DNA from: a virus | UHGV virus genome: UHGV-1818811 | DNA length: 23,133 nt | Reading direction: 5' to 3' (one strand) | Part shown: piece by piece, positions 534-7,411 of the stretch | Layout: each line of letters starts with the position of its first letter | Numbering within the stretch: the stretch's first letter is position 1 | Position numbers and translations under genes: made by a program | Notes under the pieces: generated by a model | Databases searched by the model: none | Told to the model about the DNA's origin: nothing | What the model saw: the letters and a program-made list of their open reading frames with translations, nothing else

Positions 534-3287
534 ATGAACTGGATTGGTTCTCGGTGGTGGAAATTCGACTTCCATAATCACACTCCGGCATCGGACGATT
601 ATGGAAAAGGCCCTAATCAGGCCCAGTATATGCAGATCACTCATAAAGATTGGCTGCTCAACTACATGCGACAAGGCATCGATTGTGTCGCTGTCACGGA
701 CCATAATTCAGGCGCTTGGATTGATCCGCTCAAGCAGGCACTCAAGGAACTGGCATCTGAGAGTCATGAAGATTATCGACCACTCTACTTATTCCCAGGT
801 GTTGAGCTTACTGTTCAGGGGAATATCCATATTCTGGCCATTTTCGGCGAAGACAAGACAACCTCTGATATCGACTCACTGCTTGGTGCGGTCAGGTATC
901 GCGGCACCAAAGGAAAGAGCGACGGCTGCTCTGAATGCTCAGCAGTTGAGGTGATCGACGAAATTGCTAGGTCAGGAGGACTTGCAATACCTGCTCATGT
1001 AGATCAGGCTAGCGGACTTTTTACGGTCTGTACGGGCAACACACTAGAGCAGGTGCTTGACAACAAATGTGTTTTTGCTATGGAAGTAACGGACCTTGCT
1101 AAAGCAAAACCGCAGCTCTATATTGGCAAGAATTTGAATTGGGCAGCGATTCTTGGAACCGATTCCCATCATCCGTCCGGTACCGGAAATCAACGCTACC
1201 CGGGTAGCCATTTCACTTGGGTAAAAATGTCGGAGCCATCTTATGACGGATTACGGCTGGCGCTCGTTGATGGGGCTCTTTCACTGAAGCGGTCGGACAA
1301 CTTCACTGGTGACCCAAATATCCATGGACAACTTGCCATCGAAAGTATCGTGGTTGATGATGCGAAGTACTTAGGACGAGGGCAATCTTTAACTTGTCAA
1401 CTGAACCCCTGGCTCAACACTATCATTGGTGGACGAGGCACTGGGAAATCGACTTCGTTGGAATTCCTGCGGATTGCTCTTAAACGAAAGGGAGAAATCC
1501 CCAAGAGCCTTGAAAAGGAATTTACCAAATACAGTCAAACTTCGAAAGACCGCCAAGATGAAGGGCTGTTAAAAGATTCCACGAAAATAACTGTAGGCTT
1601 TCGAAAAGACGGTGGCCGTTTCCGAATCACCTGGTCTAATACCGACGACATATACAGCATCGAGGAAGAGACCGCTCCCGGAGTCTGGTGTGCTTCCGAG
1701 GGAGACATAGCACAACGATTTCCTGTCAGGATTTACAGCCAGAAACAGATATTCGAATTGGCAAAGCATCCCCAAGCACTCTTGCAGGTTGTCGATGATG
1801 CCCCGGAGGTCAATCATCGTGATTGGCAGCTTAAGTGGGATGAACTGGTTTCCAAATATCTCTCGCTTCGCGCCCAAGAGCGTGAAGTTCAGGCTGGGCT
1901 TCAGGAAGAATCGGTAACCAAAGGTCAGCTTGAAGACGTCAAACGCAAACTCGATGTTTTTGAAAAGGCGGGCCACGCGGATGTCCTTAAGGCTTACCAA
2001 CTCAGACAGAACCAGAGTAAAGCTATGGACTACTGGGTAACGACTTGGGAGGATTCCGCCGAACAGGTCCGAGATATTTCTGGAAGCCTACTGCCAGCAG
2101 AATTGGATTTACAATATTTCGACATTGGGAATGCGGATGACAAAGAACTCTTCGATACCATCAAGGACATCCGTGCGACGTTTGAGAAGCTTCAGACAGA
2201 GATGAACTCGATCGCGCAGCGGATTGATGATGTGAAGAACTCATGGAATCAAACTCGATCAGACTTGGGAATATCGAAAAGAATTACAGCGGCGAGCCAT
2301 GAATACAACGCCCTCCTCGGTCAACTCAGCGCAGCAGACGCAGGTGATCCATCTGCATATGGTGTTCTGGTTAAGCAGCGACAAGATTTCGAAGATAAGC
2401 TCAAGGGATTCGACAAAAAGAGAGAAACTCTTGCGCAGCATCAGAAGAGCGCGGAAGAATACTTGGTCAAACTCCATGAGCATCGAGCATTGATAACCAA
2501 ACTTCGTGAGGACTTTCTCAAGGATACTCTCGTCGGCAATTCATATGTACAGATCAATGTCATTCCGTTTGGAAACAAGATTACGGTTGAGGAAGAATTC
2601 CGTAACCTGATCGGCCGCAGTGGTGGCGGATTTGACCGCGACATTGGAGTTGTTGACGGGGATGAGGGCTTGCTGGCTTATTTAACGCAAGACCAATCCA
2701 ATACTATGGATGATAAAATTGAGAAAATAAAATCATCGCTACTTGCAATCCATGAAAACGATACTATGGCGGTGGAATCCTGCAAAGATCGACGTTTTGT
2801 ATCCCTCATTCAGGGGCTAACTCCGGAACAGATAGATCGAATTCAGTGCTGGTTTCCAGGCGATTCTCTGGATATCAGATATAGCCTCAAGAACGGCGAG
2901 AGTTTCAAACCCGTAGAGCAAGGATCTCCGGGGCAAAAAACGGCGGCTCTCCTTGCATTTATCCTTTCATATGGCAATGAGCCTCTTATACTTGATCAGC
3001 CTGAGGATGATCTTGATAACCACTTAATCTATGATCTTATCGTGACGCAATTGCGTGAGATCAAACAAAAACGGCAGGTTTTAGTAGTCACGCACAACGC
3101 TAACATCGTCGTGAATGGTGACGCGGAAAACGTCATTGCCCTTGATATTCGGTCTGGTCAAACCAGAATTGTGGCGCAAGGGGGTCTTCAAGAACCTTCC
3201 ATACGCGATGAGATATGCCGAGTGATGGAAGGTGGCAAAGAGGCCTTTACCCAAAGATATAAACGAATCAATGCAGCAATCAAATAG
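534..3287 (+). CDS. 917-aa fusion of an N-terminal PHP-family phosphoesterase domain with an SMC/Rad50-like ABC ATPase (Walker A, long coiled-coil insert, signature-like motif, Walker B, H-loop); candidate single-gene anti-phage protein with Ppl-like architecture
   Basis: PHP metal-binding motifs in the first ~210 aa: FHNHT, VTDHN, GVEL, HILA, PAHVD, TDSHH. Walker A IIGGRGTGKST (~aa 300). About 450 aa of predicted coiled coil. C-terminal SPGQKTAALLA (signature-like), LILDQPEDDLD (Walker B/D-loop), VVTHNANI (H-loop). No adjacent SbcD-like partner. GC visibly lower than the phage structural genes. Confidence 0.9.
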   Translation: MNWIGSRWWKFDFHNHTPASDDYGKGPNQAQYMQITHKDWLLNYMRQGIDCVAVTDHNSGAWIDPLKQALKELASESHEDYRPLYLFPGVELTVQGNIHILAIFGEDKTTSDIDSLLGAVRYRGTKGKSDGCSECSAVEVIDEIARSGGLAIPAHVDQASGLFTVCTGNTLEQVLDNKCVFAMEVTDLAKAKPQLYIGKNLNWAAILGTDSHHPSGTGNQRYPGSHFTWVKMSEPSYDGLRLALVDGALSLKRSDNFTGDPNIHGQLAIESIVVDDAKYLGRGQSLTCQLNPWLNTIIGGRGTGKSTSLEFLRIALKRKGEIPKSLEKEFTKYSQTSKDRQDEGLLKDSTKITVGFRKDGGRFRITWSNTDDIYSIEEETAPGVWCASEGDIAQRFPVRIYSQKQIFELAKHPQALLQVVDDAPEVNHRDWQLKWDELVSKYLSLRAQEREVQAGLQEESVTKGQLEDVKRKLDVFEKAGHADVLKAYQLRQNQSKAMDYWVTTWEDSAEQVRDISGSLLPAELDLQYFDIGNADDKELFDTIKDIRATFEKLQTEMNSIAQRIDDVKNSWNQTRSDLGISKRITAASHEYNALLGQLSAADAGDPSAYGVLVKQRQDFEDKLKGFDKKRETLAQHQKSAEEYLVKLHEHRALITKLREDFLKDTLVGNSYVQINVIPFGNKITVEEEFRNLIGRSGGGFDRDIGVVDGDEGLLAYLTQDQSNTMDDKIEKIKSSLLAIHENDTMAVESCKDRRFVSLIQGLTPEQIDRIQCWFPGDSLDIRYSLKNGESFKPVEQGSPGQKTAALLAFILSYGNEPLILDQPEDDLDNHLIYDLIVTQLREIKQKRQVLVVTHNANIVVNGDAENVIALDIRSGQTRIVAQGGLQEPSIRDEICRVMEGGKEAFTQRYKRINAAIK

Positions 3288-3305
3288 AACGGAGTTGCAC
3301 TTGAA

Positions 3306-3388
3306 CGGCAATTGCGCTGAGCTCAATTGCCGCCAATGCTTGGTCGTTAACGTCTGCTCCTGGCACAGGGCTGCTGTTGCAGCCCTGA
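3306..3388. other. Two perfect 9-bp-stem hairpins between convergent reading frames; possible transcript-end structures, not canonical intrinsic terminators
   Basis: CGGCAATTG-(9 nt loop)-CAATTGCCG at 3306-3332 and CAGGGCTGC-TGTT-GCAGCCCTG at 3367-3388. Neither is followed by a U-run on either strand. Confidence 0.3.
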
Positions 3389-3393
3389 CAACC

Positions 3394-3540
3394 TTAGACT
3401 TCAATCGATTCAGAGATCTCTAACGCATCATCGACTTCAATGCCCAGATAACGGAATGTGCTTTCCAGTTTCTTATGACCCAACAGAAGTTGAATCACCC
3501 GAAGATTCTTGGTCAGCGGACAATAGGTGCAACGCCATAT
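3394..3540 (-). pseudogene. Remnant of a tyrosine recombinase/integrase C-terminus (degraded, no intact upstream catalytic region)
   Basis: Minus-strand translation ends ...NLRVIQLLLGHKKLESTFRYLGIEVDDALEISESIEV*, matching the conserved LLGH....T.RY tail of tyrosine recombinases (RY = candidate catalytic Tyr). Upstream sequence in the same frame does not continue as a recognisable recombinase and no long ORF exists. Confidence 0.3.
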
Positions 3541-3847
3541 TGAACCCTTAAGACTAAAGTGGACCGATATAGTAAGCGTTACACTGACCCGTTGCCAGCA
3601 TCGAAATGCCTAAGCTACGAAAACTCTTTGACGGACATAATGTTCCTCATGTTTGCCACATGTCTCCGATTGAGCACAACTATAGTCTGCTGATGAGACT
3701 AATTATGGCACTGAGCAGACCTGCTCGCTAGGCGAGATCCGCTGTGAGCGAATTGCAGAGGTCTCGAATATGCTTGATAATAATGCTTGAAGATATAATT
3801 GGTATGAGCCTGAAAATTTATTTTTAAAGAATTATTAAATACTGCCG

Positions 3848-4384
3848 ATGTTAATAATTATACTAAAAAAAAGGAACATGGAATTTATGTTAAATTTAGA
3901 CGAAATGTGCAGCGCATTAAGAAAACAATACTCTATAACGGCTGGTCAAGATGGTGAGAAATATGCTAGTAGATGGCTGGAAAAATCCAAGTGGAAATTT
4001 GAACATGTTGAGCAAGGAATAAATACCTTATCTGCAAACTTGAAATCATATGGGGGGAAACGCCCCGATTTCATTATTGACGCTGACGAATCCTCTTATA
4101 TTCTTTTAGATGCGAAGTATCACTCAACAGATGGGTGTACCTCCTTTACACTTACTGATTGTGAAATAGGAAAGTATAGAGCACTTCAGCAATTCTTAAA
4201 AAATGTGTATAGTGATTGTACTTTCGAAGTAGTCTTTATGGTGTTTCCGAAAGAAAAAAATGGTGACGAATTTACATTTGTGAGTCTAGATGAGTTTGAT
4301 AAAGGAGAGTGTACGACTCTAGCATCAAAAGATGCAACGAAAATTAGTCTACTCTATCGAGATGACTTATGGTTTAAAAGTTGA
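3848..4384 (+). CDS. Small PD-(D/E)xK-fold nuclease-like protein (NERD / restriction-endonuclease-like core) in an AT-rich islet; family unassigned
   Basis: Motifs AGQDGE (GxxGE), GKRPDFIID (PD) and ILLDAKY (DxK) in canonical order and spacing. Islet ~3780-4520 is strongly AT-rich relative to flanking phage DNA. Start uncertain: ATG at 3848, 3878 or 3887; AAGGAA at 3871-3876 best serves the 3887 ATG. Confidence 0.8.
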   Translation: MLIIILKKRNMEFMLNLDEMCSALRKQYSITAGQDGEKYASRWLEKSKWKFEHVEQGINTLSANLKSYGGKRPDFIIDADESSYILLDAKYHSTDGCTSFTLTDCEIGKYRALQQFLKNVYSDCTFEVVFMVFPKEKNGDEFTFVSLDEFDKGECTTLASKDATKISLLYRDDLWFKS

Positions 4385-4691
4385 TTAATAAAAAACAATT
4401 GGCTTTCACCATTTTTAATTACTTTTCCCAGCATGCCGAAAATGTCTCATTTATTTGAATGATTGTATCTTTAATAGATATATCGCGACTATTCCTAAAC
4501 TTATTTCTAGTTGTTAACAAAACTGTGTGCTATGAATGTCTGCTGTTGGCACATAGCAGTTCTAGAGACAGTGGCGTAAAGTCATGGAGAATCGGTGGAA
4601 GGAGGTGCAAACCCTCTCATACAAAAATGCGTAAAATCAGTAACGGCTGGAAATCATTCAATACTCGCACTATCAAAAGTTCACCAGCCAA

Positions 4692-4730
4692 CCGCGACAC
4701 CTCCTGCATACGACATGTCTGCGGTTTTAT
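4692..4730 (+). terminator. Putative intrinsic terminator for plus-strand transcription, overlapping the stop codon of the convergent invertase gene
   Basis: CCGCGACA (4692-4699) pairs with TGTCTGCGG (4716-4724) with a 1-nt bulge, followed by TTTTATAT. The loop is large (16 nt), so confidence is low. Confidence 0.35.
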
Positions 4731-5281
4731 ATAACCCTGGCTGGAAACCTCTTATACAAAGTTGACACACCAACATCATAGATAATAGCCACCTTCTGGC
4801 GAGGAACGCCTGATGCAATTAATCGCCCGGCCTGCGCCCATTGTTCTGGTGTAAGTTTGGGACGACGTCCACCAATTCGTCCCTGTGCGCGAGCAGCTTC
4901 CAGTCCAGCTTTTGTTCGTTCAACAATCAGTTCTCGTTCCATTTCAGCCAGGGCACCCATCACATGAAAGAAAAAACGCCCCATCGGTGTGCTGGGATCA
5001 ATAGCATCCGTCAGGCTGCGAAAATTAACGCCACGTTCGCGCAACTCCTCAACCAGAATGACCAGATGCCGCATACTACGCCCCAGCCGATCCAGCTTCC
5101 AGACAACCAGAGTGTCACCTGTCGATAATGTCCTGAGCAGTTTTTTCAGTCCCGGCCTTTCGGACTTTGTACCGCTTACCTTGTCTTCAAAAATCAGCTC
5201 GCATCCTGCACAGTTCAGCGCATTACGTTGTAGATCTGTGTTCTGGTCATTTGTTGATACGCGTACATAGCCAATAAGCAT
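4727..5281 (-). CDS. pin: Serine DNA invertase of the Gin/Pin/Cin/Hin family (184 aa from the internal Met of the 196-aa ORF)
   Basis: MLIGYVRVSTNDQNTDLQRNAL... with catalytic Ser in YVRVST, ...LVVWKLDRLGRSM..., GRFFFHVMGALAEMERELI, C-terminal helix-turn-helix GRIGGRRPKL...; near-identical in pattern to Gin/Pin as I recall them. Sits next to an invertible tail-fibre segment. The symbol is generic for the family. Confidence 0.95.
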   Translation of the reverse strand: MLIGYVRVSTNDQNTDLQRNALNCAGCELIFEDKVSGTKSERPGLKKLLRTLSTGDTLVVWKLDRLGRSMRHLVILVEELRERGVNFRSLTDAIDPSTPMGRFFFHVMGALAEMERELIVERTKAGLEAARAQGRIGGRRPKLTPEQWAQAGRLIASGVPRQKVAIIYDVGVSTLYKRFPARVI

Positions 5282-5335
5282 GGTAGATCCCCCTGACAAA
5301 AGCAGGAATGATGCCATTTGCTCGTTATTTCTGCA

Positions 5336-5361
5336 TTTTCATAAACGTTGGTTTGAGAGAA
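5336..5361. repeat. Inversion crossover site (gix/pix-like), left boundary of the invertible segment
   Basis: TTTTCATAAACG TT GGTTTGAGAGAA has the AAAC..GGTTT dyad typical of Gin-family sites. It is an inverted copy of 7181-7206 (19/26 identical; segment-proximal arm 13/14). Confidence 0.6.
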
Positions 5362-5982
5362 GGTTCATTTGGGTTCAGAAATCTGGTTACCTTCACAACG
5401 GCTGGAGTAACAAGCTGGACTGTTCCTGAAGAGTTGCGCAAAGGAAGAAAATGTTACGTCAAAGTTATTGGTGGCGGTGCGTCAGGAGGGATAGGTTCAA
5501 CAACCGCTTCAGCCGTTACATGTGGCGGAGGGGGTGGTGGGGGCGGAGTTGCTGAGGGACTGGTAGATTTAACTGGTATAAACAGTGTTTCGATTACGGT
5601 TGGTGCCGGTGGTGCGCCTGTGTCTGGTATTTCTGTAAACGGTAAAAATGGTGGCTCGAGCAGTTTCGGGACTTACATGTCAGCTTCCGGAGGCTATAGC
5701 GGAGGCCAGCCTTCCGGAGGGTTAGGCGCAGTTGGTGTCGGGGGAACAATTAATACATCGCTTGGGCCAGGTTCTCCAGGTTCCATTGCTTCTGCCGCAT
5801 CGGGGGCTGGTAATGGTGGTTCTGGTGGTGGCCCCGGAGGAGCAGGTTCATTCAGAGATACAGCTAACGGAAAAGCGGTATCAGCAGTTGGGCCTGGAGG
5901 TGGCGGTGCTGGATTATGTCCTAATTCATCAACGGGTCAGTCGGGTGCCGGAGCAGATGGCGCAGTTTATATTTACTGGTGA
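5350..5982 (+). CDS. Silent alternative tail-fibre C-terminal cassette (Sv'-like, glycine-rich receptor-binding domain); no start codon of its own, expressed only after inversion
   Basis: The frame is open from the crossover site and begins GLREGS..., in phase with GLGEGS... at the equivalent point of the active tail-fibre gene. Sequence is Gly-rich (GGGASGGIGS...CGGGGGGGGV...). Opposite orientation to the tail operon. Confidence 0.65.
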   Translation, partial: GLREGSFGFRNLVTFTTAGVTSWTVPEELRKGRKCYVKVIGGGASGGIGSTTASAVTCGGGGGGGGVAEGLVDLTGINSVSITVGAGGAPVSGISVNGKNGGSSSFGTYMSASGGYSGGQPSGGLGAVGVGGTINTSLGPGSPGSIASAASGAGNGGSGGGPGGAGSFRDTANGKAVSAVGPGGGGAGLCPNSSTGQSGAGADGAVYIYW

Positions 5983-5989
5983 GGTTCAT

Positions 5990-6160
5990 ATGTGGGCAAG
6001 AATTGAAGAAAATAAAGTAGAAGAGATAACGGAAATTAATCCTGAAGGAAGATTCCATCCATCATTAATATGGAAAGAATGCCCTGCTGACACACAGCAG
6101 GGGGATTTATATATTGATGGTGAGTTTATTGCGCAGTCTCCGGCAGTTCAGGCCAGATAA
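5990..6160 (+). CDS. Small tail-fibre-assembly-like protein paired with the silent cassette (tfa'-like, 56 aa)
   Basis: ATG 5 nt after GAGG; starts 8 nt after the cassette stop. MWARIEENKVEEITEINPEGRFHPSLIWKECPADTQQGDLYIDGEF resembles the N-terminal region of Tfa/TAC proteins. Converges on and overlaps the 3' end of the active tfa. Short, so uncertain. Confidence 0.5.
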   Translation: MWARIEENKVEEITEINPEGRFHPSLIWKECPADTQQGDLYIDGEFIAQSPAVQAR

Positions 6161-6734
6161 CATCCGGCGCGGTGCTGGTATCTGTTGCCGTCACCGCGTC
6201 AATGTAATCCAGCACGGCGTTAAGTCGGGTTGTTTCTGCCTGCGTCAACTTCCGTCCGGCCTGTAATTTCAGCTGAATCAGACTAATGGAAGCCATTGCT
6301 GCATCAATCAGTGACTGGCGCTGTGCTTCTGCCGCGTCTACTGCGGCACTATGCTGTGCCTCAGTATCCGTCACCCATTTCTCACCATCCCATTTATCAT
6401 ATGGCGTTAACGGGGCGATAGTGGTTGTATTTTCAGGGTAATCACCCGGAGCTGTGATTTCTTTCGATTCTCCTGTTTCGGTGCTATAGATGATTTCACC
6501 GCGATGGTCTGGCACATATTCCCATGAGTTAAAATCTGCAGAACGGCAGATTGCATAACCAGCTTTATGTGTAACTGGTGCATCTAAACAAGAACATGCC
6601 GGGATACCGACGCCAACCGCAAGATATTCAGTTGATGTGGAAATATATTCCCGCGTTTCACCATCATAATTATAAATGGTAATGTCTCCCGCTTTTATGG
6701 CAATGAGTTCGTTATTTAATACGGCTTTATTCAT
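6126..6734 (-). CDS. Tail fibre assembly protein (Tfa)
   Basis: N-terminus [30 protein letters not shown]... and C-terminal ...TDTSTAPDVIWPELP are typical of Tfa chaperones. Start overlaps the stop of the upstream tail-fibre gene (ATGA). Confidence 0.85.
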   Translation of the reverse strand: MNKAVLNNELIAIKAGDITIYNYDGETREYISTSTEYLAVGVGIPACSCLDAPVTHKAGYAICRSADFNSWEYVPDHRGEIIYSTETGESKEITAPGDYPENTTTIAPLTPYDKWDGEKWVTDTEAQHSAAVDAAEAQRQSLIDAAMASISLIQLKLQAGRKLTQAETTRLNAVLDYIDAVTATDTSTAPDVIWPELPETAQ

Positions 6735-7411
6735 CAGGCAGCTCTCACGATATAATTAAAGGCAATGTTACGAGGTCGGTTTTCGTTTGCAGTTGGAACA
6801 ACTCTGGAAGCATCGAATGTTACTCGCTTTGCATAACCACCTTTAATTGAATCAGATGAAGCATCTCCGATGACGCTGGTTGTAAAAACGCCAGAATCAG
6901 AAGGGTAGATATTAAACCTGACATCCACTAATGCACCAATTATATTTCGAATGGCATCTCCCTGTGACGAAAGCAAGCTACGGTTAGTATCTATTCCTCT
7001 TCCGTCATCCCAGCCACGAATGAACTCACCACGTAAATCAGGCAATTTATTTGTCGGGTAAGCCTTTGCCAGTTCCGGGTATTCTTCAGCAGAAAAAGCC
7101 GCACCGTTGCATTTCAGCCAGCCTGTTGGCGGAGTGGCTGAAGGCCACGGAACAGGCACACCAACCGGTAATGCAGAGCCTTCTCCCAAACCACGGTTTT
7201 CGAGAGCCGTTTTCACCGTGCCATCCGATTTGATATCACCAAACGGATTCTTGCGGCTTAACAGCAGAGCACGAAGCGCGGTAAGCAACTGGTCGTTTCG
7301 CCCCTTCTCCAGGCTGGCACCGGATGCCTCCACCACGCTGCAGAGTTCTTCCTGCAACATATCAAAGTAGTCATCATCCAGTGGCAGGTGTGCCAGTCTG
7401 GGGGTTACCAC
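6734..7411 (-). CDS. Tail fibre protein (short constant N-terminus of ~73 aa fused to the currently expressed variable C-terminal collar-type domain)
   Basis: Contains [34 protein letters not shown]...[18 protein letters not shown]..., a phage tail-collar / receptor-binding motif. Inversion site lies inside the ORF at codons ~69-77. Confidence 0.85.
7181..7206. repeat. Inversion crossover site inside the tail-fibre gene, right boundary of the invertible segment
   Basis: Minus-strand reading CTCTCGAAAACC GT GGTTTGGGAGAA; inverted repeat of 5336-5361. The central dinucleotide appears to differ between the two sites (GT vs TT). Confidence 0.6.

Follow-up and report, generated by a model that had tools for sequence, protein, structure and literature searches.

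The DNA analysed here, referred to as the window, is the 23,133-nucleotide (nt) virus genome UHGV-1818811, which represents one end of a prophage that combines a Mu-type baseplate and tail with an e14-like module of ymfQ, tail-fibre genes and pinE. This prophage end abuts the remnant of a LysR gene beside paoABCD. Between the chromosomal border and pinE lie, in this order, a gene for a 917-amino-acid (aa) protein with PHP and ABC-type ATPase domains, the remnant of a tyrosine recombinase, and the subject of our analysis, a small gene for a predicted PD-(D/E)xK nuclease. The nuclease gene and the non-coding DNA that accompanies it comprise the following features.

3737-3886, + strand: 5' non-coding flank, moving together with the gene (from an eight-locus alignment and flank identity)
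3770-3795, + strand: tandem ATGCTTGA repeat in the 5' flank
3794-3799, + strand: -10-like TATAAT, its TATA invariant in the eight-locus alignment
3848-3886, + strand: in-frame extension upstream of the start (giving 178 aa), probably 5' untranslated leader, not present in homologues
3887-4384, + strand: coding sequence of the predicted PD-(D/E)xK nuclease, 165 aa, WP_015364431.1 (from RefSeq and homologue starts)
3956-3958, 4067-4069, 4109-4111 and 4115-4117, + strand: codons of E24, D61, D75 and K77, respectively
4385-4550, + strand: 3' non-coding flank, moving together with the gene (alignable across loci)

Counted from its first ATG, the open reading frame (ORF) covers 3848-4384 on the + strand and would encode 178 aa; the RefSeq entry, labelled hypothetical protein, covers 3887-4384. 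The start codon is taken as 3887, since homologues, nearly all of them 164-168 aa long, begin at the aligned position and the ATG at 3878 is not conserved, being missing from homologous loci L002 and L004 (L numbers denote individual loci). A Shine-Dalgarno sequence, AAGGAA, is located at 3871-3876. The preliminary description of this DNA had placed a gene of approximately 170 aa in an AT-rich islet, converging on the invertase gene, and our measurements agree on all these points. The G+C fraction is 0.31-0.38 over 3601-4650 (in 300-nt windows) compared with 0.45-0.55 on either side, and is 0.36 for the nuclease gene against 0.52 for the whole window, and pinE, which encodes resolvase and HTH_7 domains, runs towards the nuclease gene at 4727-5317 on the - strand. 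Between homologues, codon positions 1 and 2 are far more conserved (identity 0.78-0.96) than position 3 (0.55-0.91), which indicates purifying selection on the protein; the ORF is therefore a real gene.

The motifs GxxGE, RPDFIID and LLDAKY, proposed earlier as a PD-(D/E)xK core, are all present, as GQDGE (E24), GGKRPDFII (D61) and ILLDAKYH (D75 and K77). An alignment of 26 sequences, with identities as low as 34%, has among its invariant positions G23, E24, G56-G57-K58-R59-P60-D61, D75, K77, E93, Y97 and P121. Among 57 remote relatives that the family profile reaches, the glutamate, RPD and DxK elements are also at least 90% conserved. AlphaFold gives a model of good confidence (predicted local distance difference test 89.5, predicted template modelling score 0.84), and its topology, alpha-beta-beta-beta-alpha-beta, is that of the canonical PD-(D/E)xK core. 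Helix 16-34 carries E24, D61 falls at strand 62-67, and strand 70-79 holds D75 and K77. Both the core fold and the arrangement of E...(P)D...(D/E)xK residues expected for helix 1 and for the second and third strands were found, and the protein is a member of the PD-(D/E)xK superfamily with a complete catalytic set. Beyond the core, the model has an extra N-terminal helix and a beta-rich C-terminal extension of 45 residues (residues 122-165). The earlier figure of about 70 aa for this extension was too long, because residues 86-121 form the second helix and fourth strand of the core, that is, its second half.

Family searches were largely negative. No Pfam model matched the nuclease at threshold, and the lone sub-threshold match, to RmuC (PF02646), scored 15.4 bits against a cut-off of 26 (E 0.01) and covered only the motif region. 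The Pfam models for Hjc, RecU and RusA gave no match, nor did any NCBIfam model, and none of the 5027 models of PADLOC-DB 2.0 matched at E <= 1. The label NERD-like had to be dropped: the NERD model (PF08378) gave no match to the nuclease at E <= 1 and was matched weakly by four of the 57 remote relatives (best E 2.7e-5), and two of the 57 matched the PADLOC entry NERD+UvrD. Domain fusions among the remote relatives were considered and none was informative. Over its full length the protein matched PHROG 28481 alone (E 2.1e-76, residues 1-163 of 165), a family without an assigned function. Public annotation is hypothetical apart from one UniRef entry, 'PD-(D/E)XK endonuclease-like domain-containing', and a profile search of PDB sequences returned McrC alone, at E 0.54. 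The closest solved folds are the Hjc/Hje Holliday-junction resolvases (PDB 2wcw, 1gef and 1ob8), at 9-14% identity; in a viral structure library the named entries among the best matches are Hjc- and RecU-type resolvases, and Foldseek also picks up chains of the SPARDA complex. By these comparisons the nuclease belongs to no named family and is uncharacterised, in keeping with the earlier failure to assign it.

Alignment of the regions around the gene delimited the unit that moves. The 5' flank, approximately 150 nt, is alignable among the window, L032, L002, L004, L028 and L005, and in L017 for the upstream side only. The 3' flank, approximately 165 nt, is alignable among the window, L032, L002, L028 and L005, and in part in L004. 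Flank identity is 0.55-0.88 and drops to 0.31-0.50, which is random, further out. Unrelated loci share these flanks, and outside them the resemblance ends. The moving unit is therefore about 0.8 kb with one gene, and 3737-4550 is a self-contained cassette that is horizontally mobile and carries a single gene between non-coding flanks of its own. In Enterobacteriaceae the G+C content of the cassette stays at 33-39%, in host loci of 37-55%.

Several candidate functions for the flanks were examined and rejected. Flank identity is close to third-codon-position identity, so common descent suffices and no extra constraint is needed, and selection on the flanks was rejected for that reason. An RNA antitoxin or regulatory RNA was rejected because the RNAalifold consensus energy is -0.6 kcal/mol for one strand and -1.1 kcal/mol for the other, and Rfam gave no match over 3300-4800 at E <= 1. 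A hidden small ORF was rejected by six-frame translations of eight loci, which had stops in every conserved-looking frame, and terminal repeats of the cassette by a search that gave short matches only, at chance level. No terminator-like site was found in the 3' flank. SOS control was rejected as well, with no CTG-N10-CAG within 400 nt upstream in the window and 13 of the 15 other loci; LexA-like matches are restricted to L039 and L022, at 12-13 of 20 consensus positions. The TATAAT at 3794-3799 stands 14 nt from the nearest TTGATA. As a separate observation, a TGCCGA(T/A) motif is present in both flanks, at 3842-3852 and 4431-4441 in the window, with homologous sites in L032, L002, L004, L028 and L005.

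The family comprises 31 clusters among 5.8 billion proteins. A profile search gave 225 representative clusters among 1.84 billion at E <= 1e-3, 85 of them at E <= 1e-10. The window matches the E. coli chromosome in APEC O78 and 12 other complete genomes out of 5426, and all 13 E. coli genomes with the exact cassette matched the full 1201-nt query 3500-4700. One plasmid record carries the gene.

About 17 independent contexts were distinguished, in which the neighbours vary, with defence genes and the cargo sites of prophages and satellites making up the majority. They are listed below, with identity to the nuclease where relevant.

Window: TrlF/Ppl neighbour
L032, 92% identical copy: retron RT-Toprim_I-C directly upstream, 4868-6709 (PADLOC 6.7e-221), on a metagenome contig
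L002, 82%: between gpV and gpS of a P2-like prophage (Rahnella)
L005-L008 and L042, 69%: intE-icd junction of e14-type prophages, by Septu-like PtuA/PtuB (L005, L042)
L010, 60%: ogr end of a P2 remnant
L043, 58%: P4-like satellite
L038, 55%: beside an ApeA HEPN gene
L046, 53%: island with two integrases, HipA and BrxR
L041, L039 and L022, 39%: downstream of Type III mod-res
L028 (6842-9025) and L045 (5843-8026): 2.2-kb block of a nuclease homologue and a DUF3800 gene (367-383 aa), 97.6% identical
L004 (9523-11183), L012 (10075-11732) and L017 (9679-11429): umuD/umuC pairs, in three unrelated contexts
L004 (8859-9530) and L016 (9080-9793): SRAP (YedK-like) gene just downstream of the homologue

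An all-against-all BLAST of the proteins encoded within 6 kb was performed for 16 representative loci, and the nuclease alone was shared across contexts. No adjacent antitoxin gene or RNA emerged, there being no shared neighbour in the 16 loci. The earlier view of the nuclease as stand-alone is upheld by this result and by the lack of a conserved small ORF or RNA structure in the cassette. The TrlF/Ppl gene accompanies the nuclease in this locus type only and is absent from the 15 other loci; as a candidate conserved partner it was rejected, the 917-918-aa proteins upstream in L022, L039 and L041 being Type III Res. The block common to L028 and L045 is found in a viral contig and in a Rouxiella chromosome with different surroundings, and the mobile unit in that lineage consists of two genes. 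The recurrence of umuDC, SRAP and DinI genes exceeds chance and reflects either shared mobile-element cargo or a link to DNA damage.

Two further observations concern individual loci. A 329-aa protein encoded just upstream of the homologue in L002 (6844-7833, + strand) has no Pfam, PHROG or PADLOC match. Between mod-res and the distant homologue, L041 (4943-6843) and L039 (6210-6836) contain further small genes, which encode one protein with both DUF7662 and NucS_C (in L041, with weak matches to PADLOC PDC-S02/S11) and 383- and 208-aa proteins without a family. These extra genes around Type III restriction-modification may form a larger module that is not recognised at present.

In the window, the cassette occupies a variable cargo slot beyond pinE in an e14/Mu-tail-type prophage, beside the TrlF/Ppl gene. 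Two features lie between it and the chromosomal border.

534-3287, + strand: 917-aa PHP-domain and ABC/SMC-type ATPase of the TrlF/Ppl family (PADLOC Ppl, NCBIfam TrlF)
About 3397-3525, - strand: C-terminal remnant of a tyrosine recombinase, ending in LTKNLRVIQLLLGHKKLESTFRYLGIEVDDALEISESIEV and a stop; RefSeq has only a 34-aa hypothetical protein

The ATPase was assigned by PADLOC Ppl (6.5e-157) and by the NCBIfam TrlF-family model (649 bits, cut-off 350); it scored 630 bits with the NCBIfam Ppl equivalog, under the cut-off of 1000. At the prophage edge it is thus placed as a defence candidate of a known, single-gene type. The statement in the preliminary description that no same-strand ATPase is adjacent was wrong as written, since this is the next + strand gene upstream of the nuclease, 600 nt off, with the integrase remnant between them. 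The position of this remnant suggests that the TrlF/Ppl gene and the nuclease cassette reached the locus separately. A literature search on TrlF returned spectroscopy papers only, among the matches listed.

On the pinE side, the 160-nt non-coding sequence at 4532-4695 is common to about 2900 E. coli genomes at 88-97% identity, and its last 70 nt occur in 121 phage records, mostly Stx-converting, near the record ends. In two inspected loci it stands just past tail-fibre-assembly and pin remnants, with differing cargo beyond, so the position is a general cargo boundary and 4532-4695 looks like the conserved edge of a cargo hotspot. The analogy with e14 drawn earlier holds, in that the slot beyond pinE in K-12 e14 is occupied by mcrA.

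On the far side of pinE, inverted Pin crossover-like sites, AAACGTTGGTTTGAGAGAAGG and AAACCGTGGTTTGGGAGAAGG, are located at 5343-5354 and 7188-7199. They bracket a segment of about 1.85 kb by pinE that carries an alternative tail-fibre C-terminus and assembly genes, and this segment is an invertible host-range switch like the P segment of e14. It also holds a 224-aa glycine-rich ORF at 5308-5982 (+ strand; Gly_rich_2, 2.3e-11), for which RefSeq gives a shorter 'gp53-like domain' protein.

From its gene neighbourhood, the most likely function of the nuclease is that of a stand-alone anti-phage enzyme serving the lysogen, a reading to which, as to a defence role in any form, we attach about an even chance. 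According to DefensePredictor (PMC13092281), PD-(D/E)XK is the commonest domain in newly validated E. coli defence systems, with 13 such systems among 31 of those validated there. In such a role, the nuclease would be expressed in the lysogen from its own promoter, which is assumed, and would need no partner, probably forming a homodimer as do other minimal enzymes of the fold. E24, D61, D75 and K77 would carry out metal-dependent phosphodiester cleavage, and the DNA of a superinfecting phage would be cut. Because no methyltransferase or antitoxin travels along, discrimination between self and non-self would have to come from the target DNA itself or from an infection trigger. That the protein cleaves DNA, how it oligomerises, that it is expressed, what it cuts and how it affects phage are all inferred.

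The manner of discrimination could take several forms. A Type IV-like enzyme dependent on modified bases is possible, if doubtful; this reading draws on its being the simplest rule for a lone nuclease, on the mcrA slot and on the size precedent of NhoI-type enzymes. A latent nuclease triggered by infection, of the abortive-infection type, would be a rather unlikely form. The Hjc-like fold of the model would fit an enzyme selective for branches or junctions, with intermediates of phage replication or recombination as its substrates, which we consider quite unlikely. It is improbable, and would be the most striking outcome, that a partner-less Hjc-like nuclease acts as immunity by cutting branched intermediates formed when phage DNA replicates or recombines, or by reading another structural feature of the invading DNA, and not its sequence or modification. 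If so, the 165-aa protein would constitute a one-gene defence system with DNA architecture as the rule for self and non-self, dispersed in the form of a 0.8-kb cassette among the hotspots of prophages, satellites and defence islands.

A number of observations weigh against an anti-phage role. The neighbourhood evidence is indirect, and several of the contexts do not resemble defence loci: in L004, L012 and L017 umuDC is at most one or two genes away from the homologue, SRAP is located downstream of it in L004 and L016 and DinI near it in L004 and L017, and L044 is plain chromosome. There is no homology link to a validated defence protein, PADLOC being without a match at E <= 1, and the best structural matches are junction resolvases and not restriction enzymes. 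No separate modified-base reader domain is recognisable in the nuclease. A promoter scan detected no canonical sigma-70 promoter upstream and no canonical -35, and expression in the lysogen is for this reason an assumption. The gene is rare, with 16 carriers among 5426 E. coli genomes, and occurs in none of the sequenced phage records. In the literature, the searched text of the DefensePredictor supplements (PMC13092281), truncated for several of them, contains none of six family accessions or four peptides. The accession of the nuclease was not found in the searchable full-text literature, and a search for Hjc or NERD in defence gave nothing relevant.

The closest solved folds also raise the main rival explanation, namely that the protein is a Holliday-junction resolvase or DNA-repair accessory of the prophage, with a role as in Hjc, RecU, RusA or Rap, serving recombination or damage tolerance of the element or its host, and not an immunity enzyme. 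The preliminary description had not taken this rival into account. The named matches in the viral structure library agree with this, as does the company of umuDC, SRAP and DinI described above, except that mobile elements commonly carry these genes as cargo. Hjc, which represents the fold at its minimal core, tends to top the matches of any small member, so that its top rank says little about junction specificity, and an identity of 9-14% together with the silence of the Hjc, RecU and RusA models points away from a resolvase. Phage resolvases are usually located in replication or nin-type modules, whereas this gene, together with its own flanks, occupies AT-rich cargo slots that frequently adjoin defence systems, and no LexA box was found upstream. 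We therefore regard a resolvase or repair role as unlikely. Dependence on a neighbouring system, as an accessory or effector subunit of TrlF/Ppl here and of Type III restriction-modification in other loci, is very unlikely. The nuclease gene does share its strand with TrlF/Ppl, which it follows at a distance of 600 nt, 13 genomes match all of 3500-4700 and the one inspected, L001, also carries the TrlF gene, and the 39%-identical homologues in L041, L039 and L022 are encoded on the strand of mod-res, after it and one or two small genes. Against this, TrlF/Ppl is missing from every other family context, the remnant between the two genes is on the opposite strand, the cassette has its own conserved 5' region, and partners vary by locus. 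Ppl is a single-gene system. In PADLOC, the RT-Toprim models are tagged 'single gene' and Ppl has no such description.

Two other rivals concern a selfish element and a toxin. A selfish, free-standing homing-type endonuclease would spread by cutting alleles that lack the cassette, to the benefit of neither host nor prophage, and a single AT-rich gene with flanks set between conserved phage genes, as between P2 gpV and gpS in L002, has the appearance of one. Such an element would need a common target site, and the random identity beyond the cassette ends (0.31-0.50) in unrelated contexts argues that none exists; the contexts are moreover cargo hotspots with many unrelated genes, and purifying selection on the protein is clear across genera, making homing highly improbable. 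Just as improbable is the toxin of a toxin-antitoxin pair with a role in addiction or stabilisation, its antitoxin being an unrecognised small RNA or micro-ORF. A partner-less small nuclease would be expected to need restraint, approximately 315 nt of non-coding DNA travel with it, and TGCCGA(T/A) recurs in both flanks; these flanks, for their part, hold no conserved RNA structure, Rfam match or ORF and diverge at about the synonymous rate, with no extra constraint.

If the nuclease is protective, its gene would rank with the smallest known defence genes that act autonomously, and would be a handy minimal model of the way in which a lone nuclease distinguishes foreign DNA from its own. If it is not, it would be another uncharacterised PD-(D/E)xK cargo gene of prophages, which are common and of modest interest. 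Specialists would be surprised only if the structure-specific reading were true; the gene is in any case a sound candidate for a cheap assay. For the movement of cargo, it is of value that the same 0.8-kb unit with its flanks is seen at the pinE-distal slot, at the intE-icd junction of e14 relatives and at the P2 gpV-gpS site, with more distant homologues in a P4-like satellite and beside Type III restriction-modification loci.

Compared with known systems, the nuclease differs from the archaeal Hjc/Hje resolvases, apart from its low identity to them, in its extra N-terminal helix and its 45-aa beta-rich C-terminal extension, and in being bacterial and the cargo of mobile elements. It has the motif order GxxGE...PD...(D/E)xK in common with NERD (PF08378) and RmuC (PF02646) and falls below the thresholds of both families, so it is not a member of either. 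No significant sequence relationship was found to e14 McrA, McrC or the small BisI-family enzymes (NhoI, PDB 8q5n); McrA is an HNH enzyme and McrC requires the McrB GTPase, and the nuclease is without a recognisable modified-base reader. PHROG 28481 is the nuclease's own family and carries no function. Unlike known defence families, the nuclease is matched by no PADLOC 2.0 model, and it resembles the DefensePredictor systems (PMC13092281) in that these are likewise PD-(D/E)xK proteins in variable prophage loci. The family is unnamed, and the type of object, a PD-(D/E)xK cargo gene of prophages, is a familiar one.

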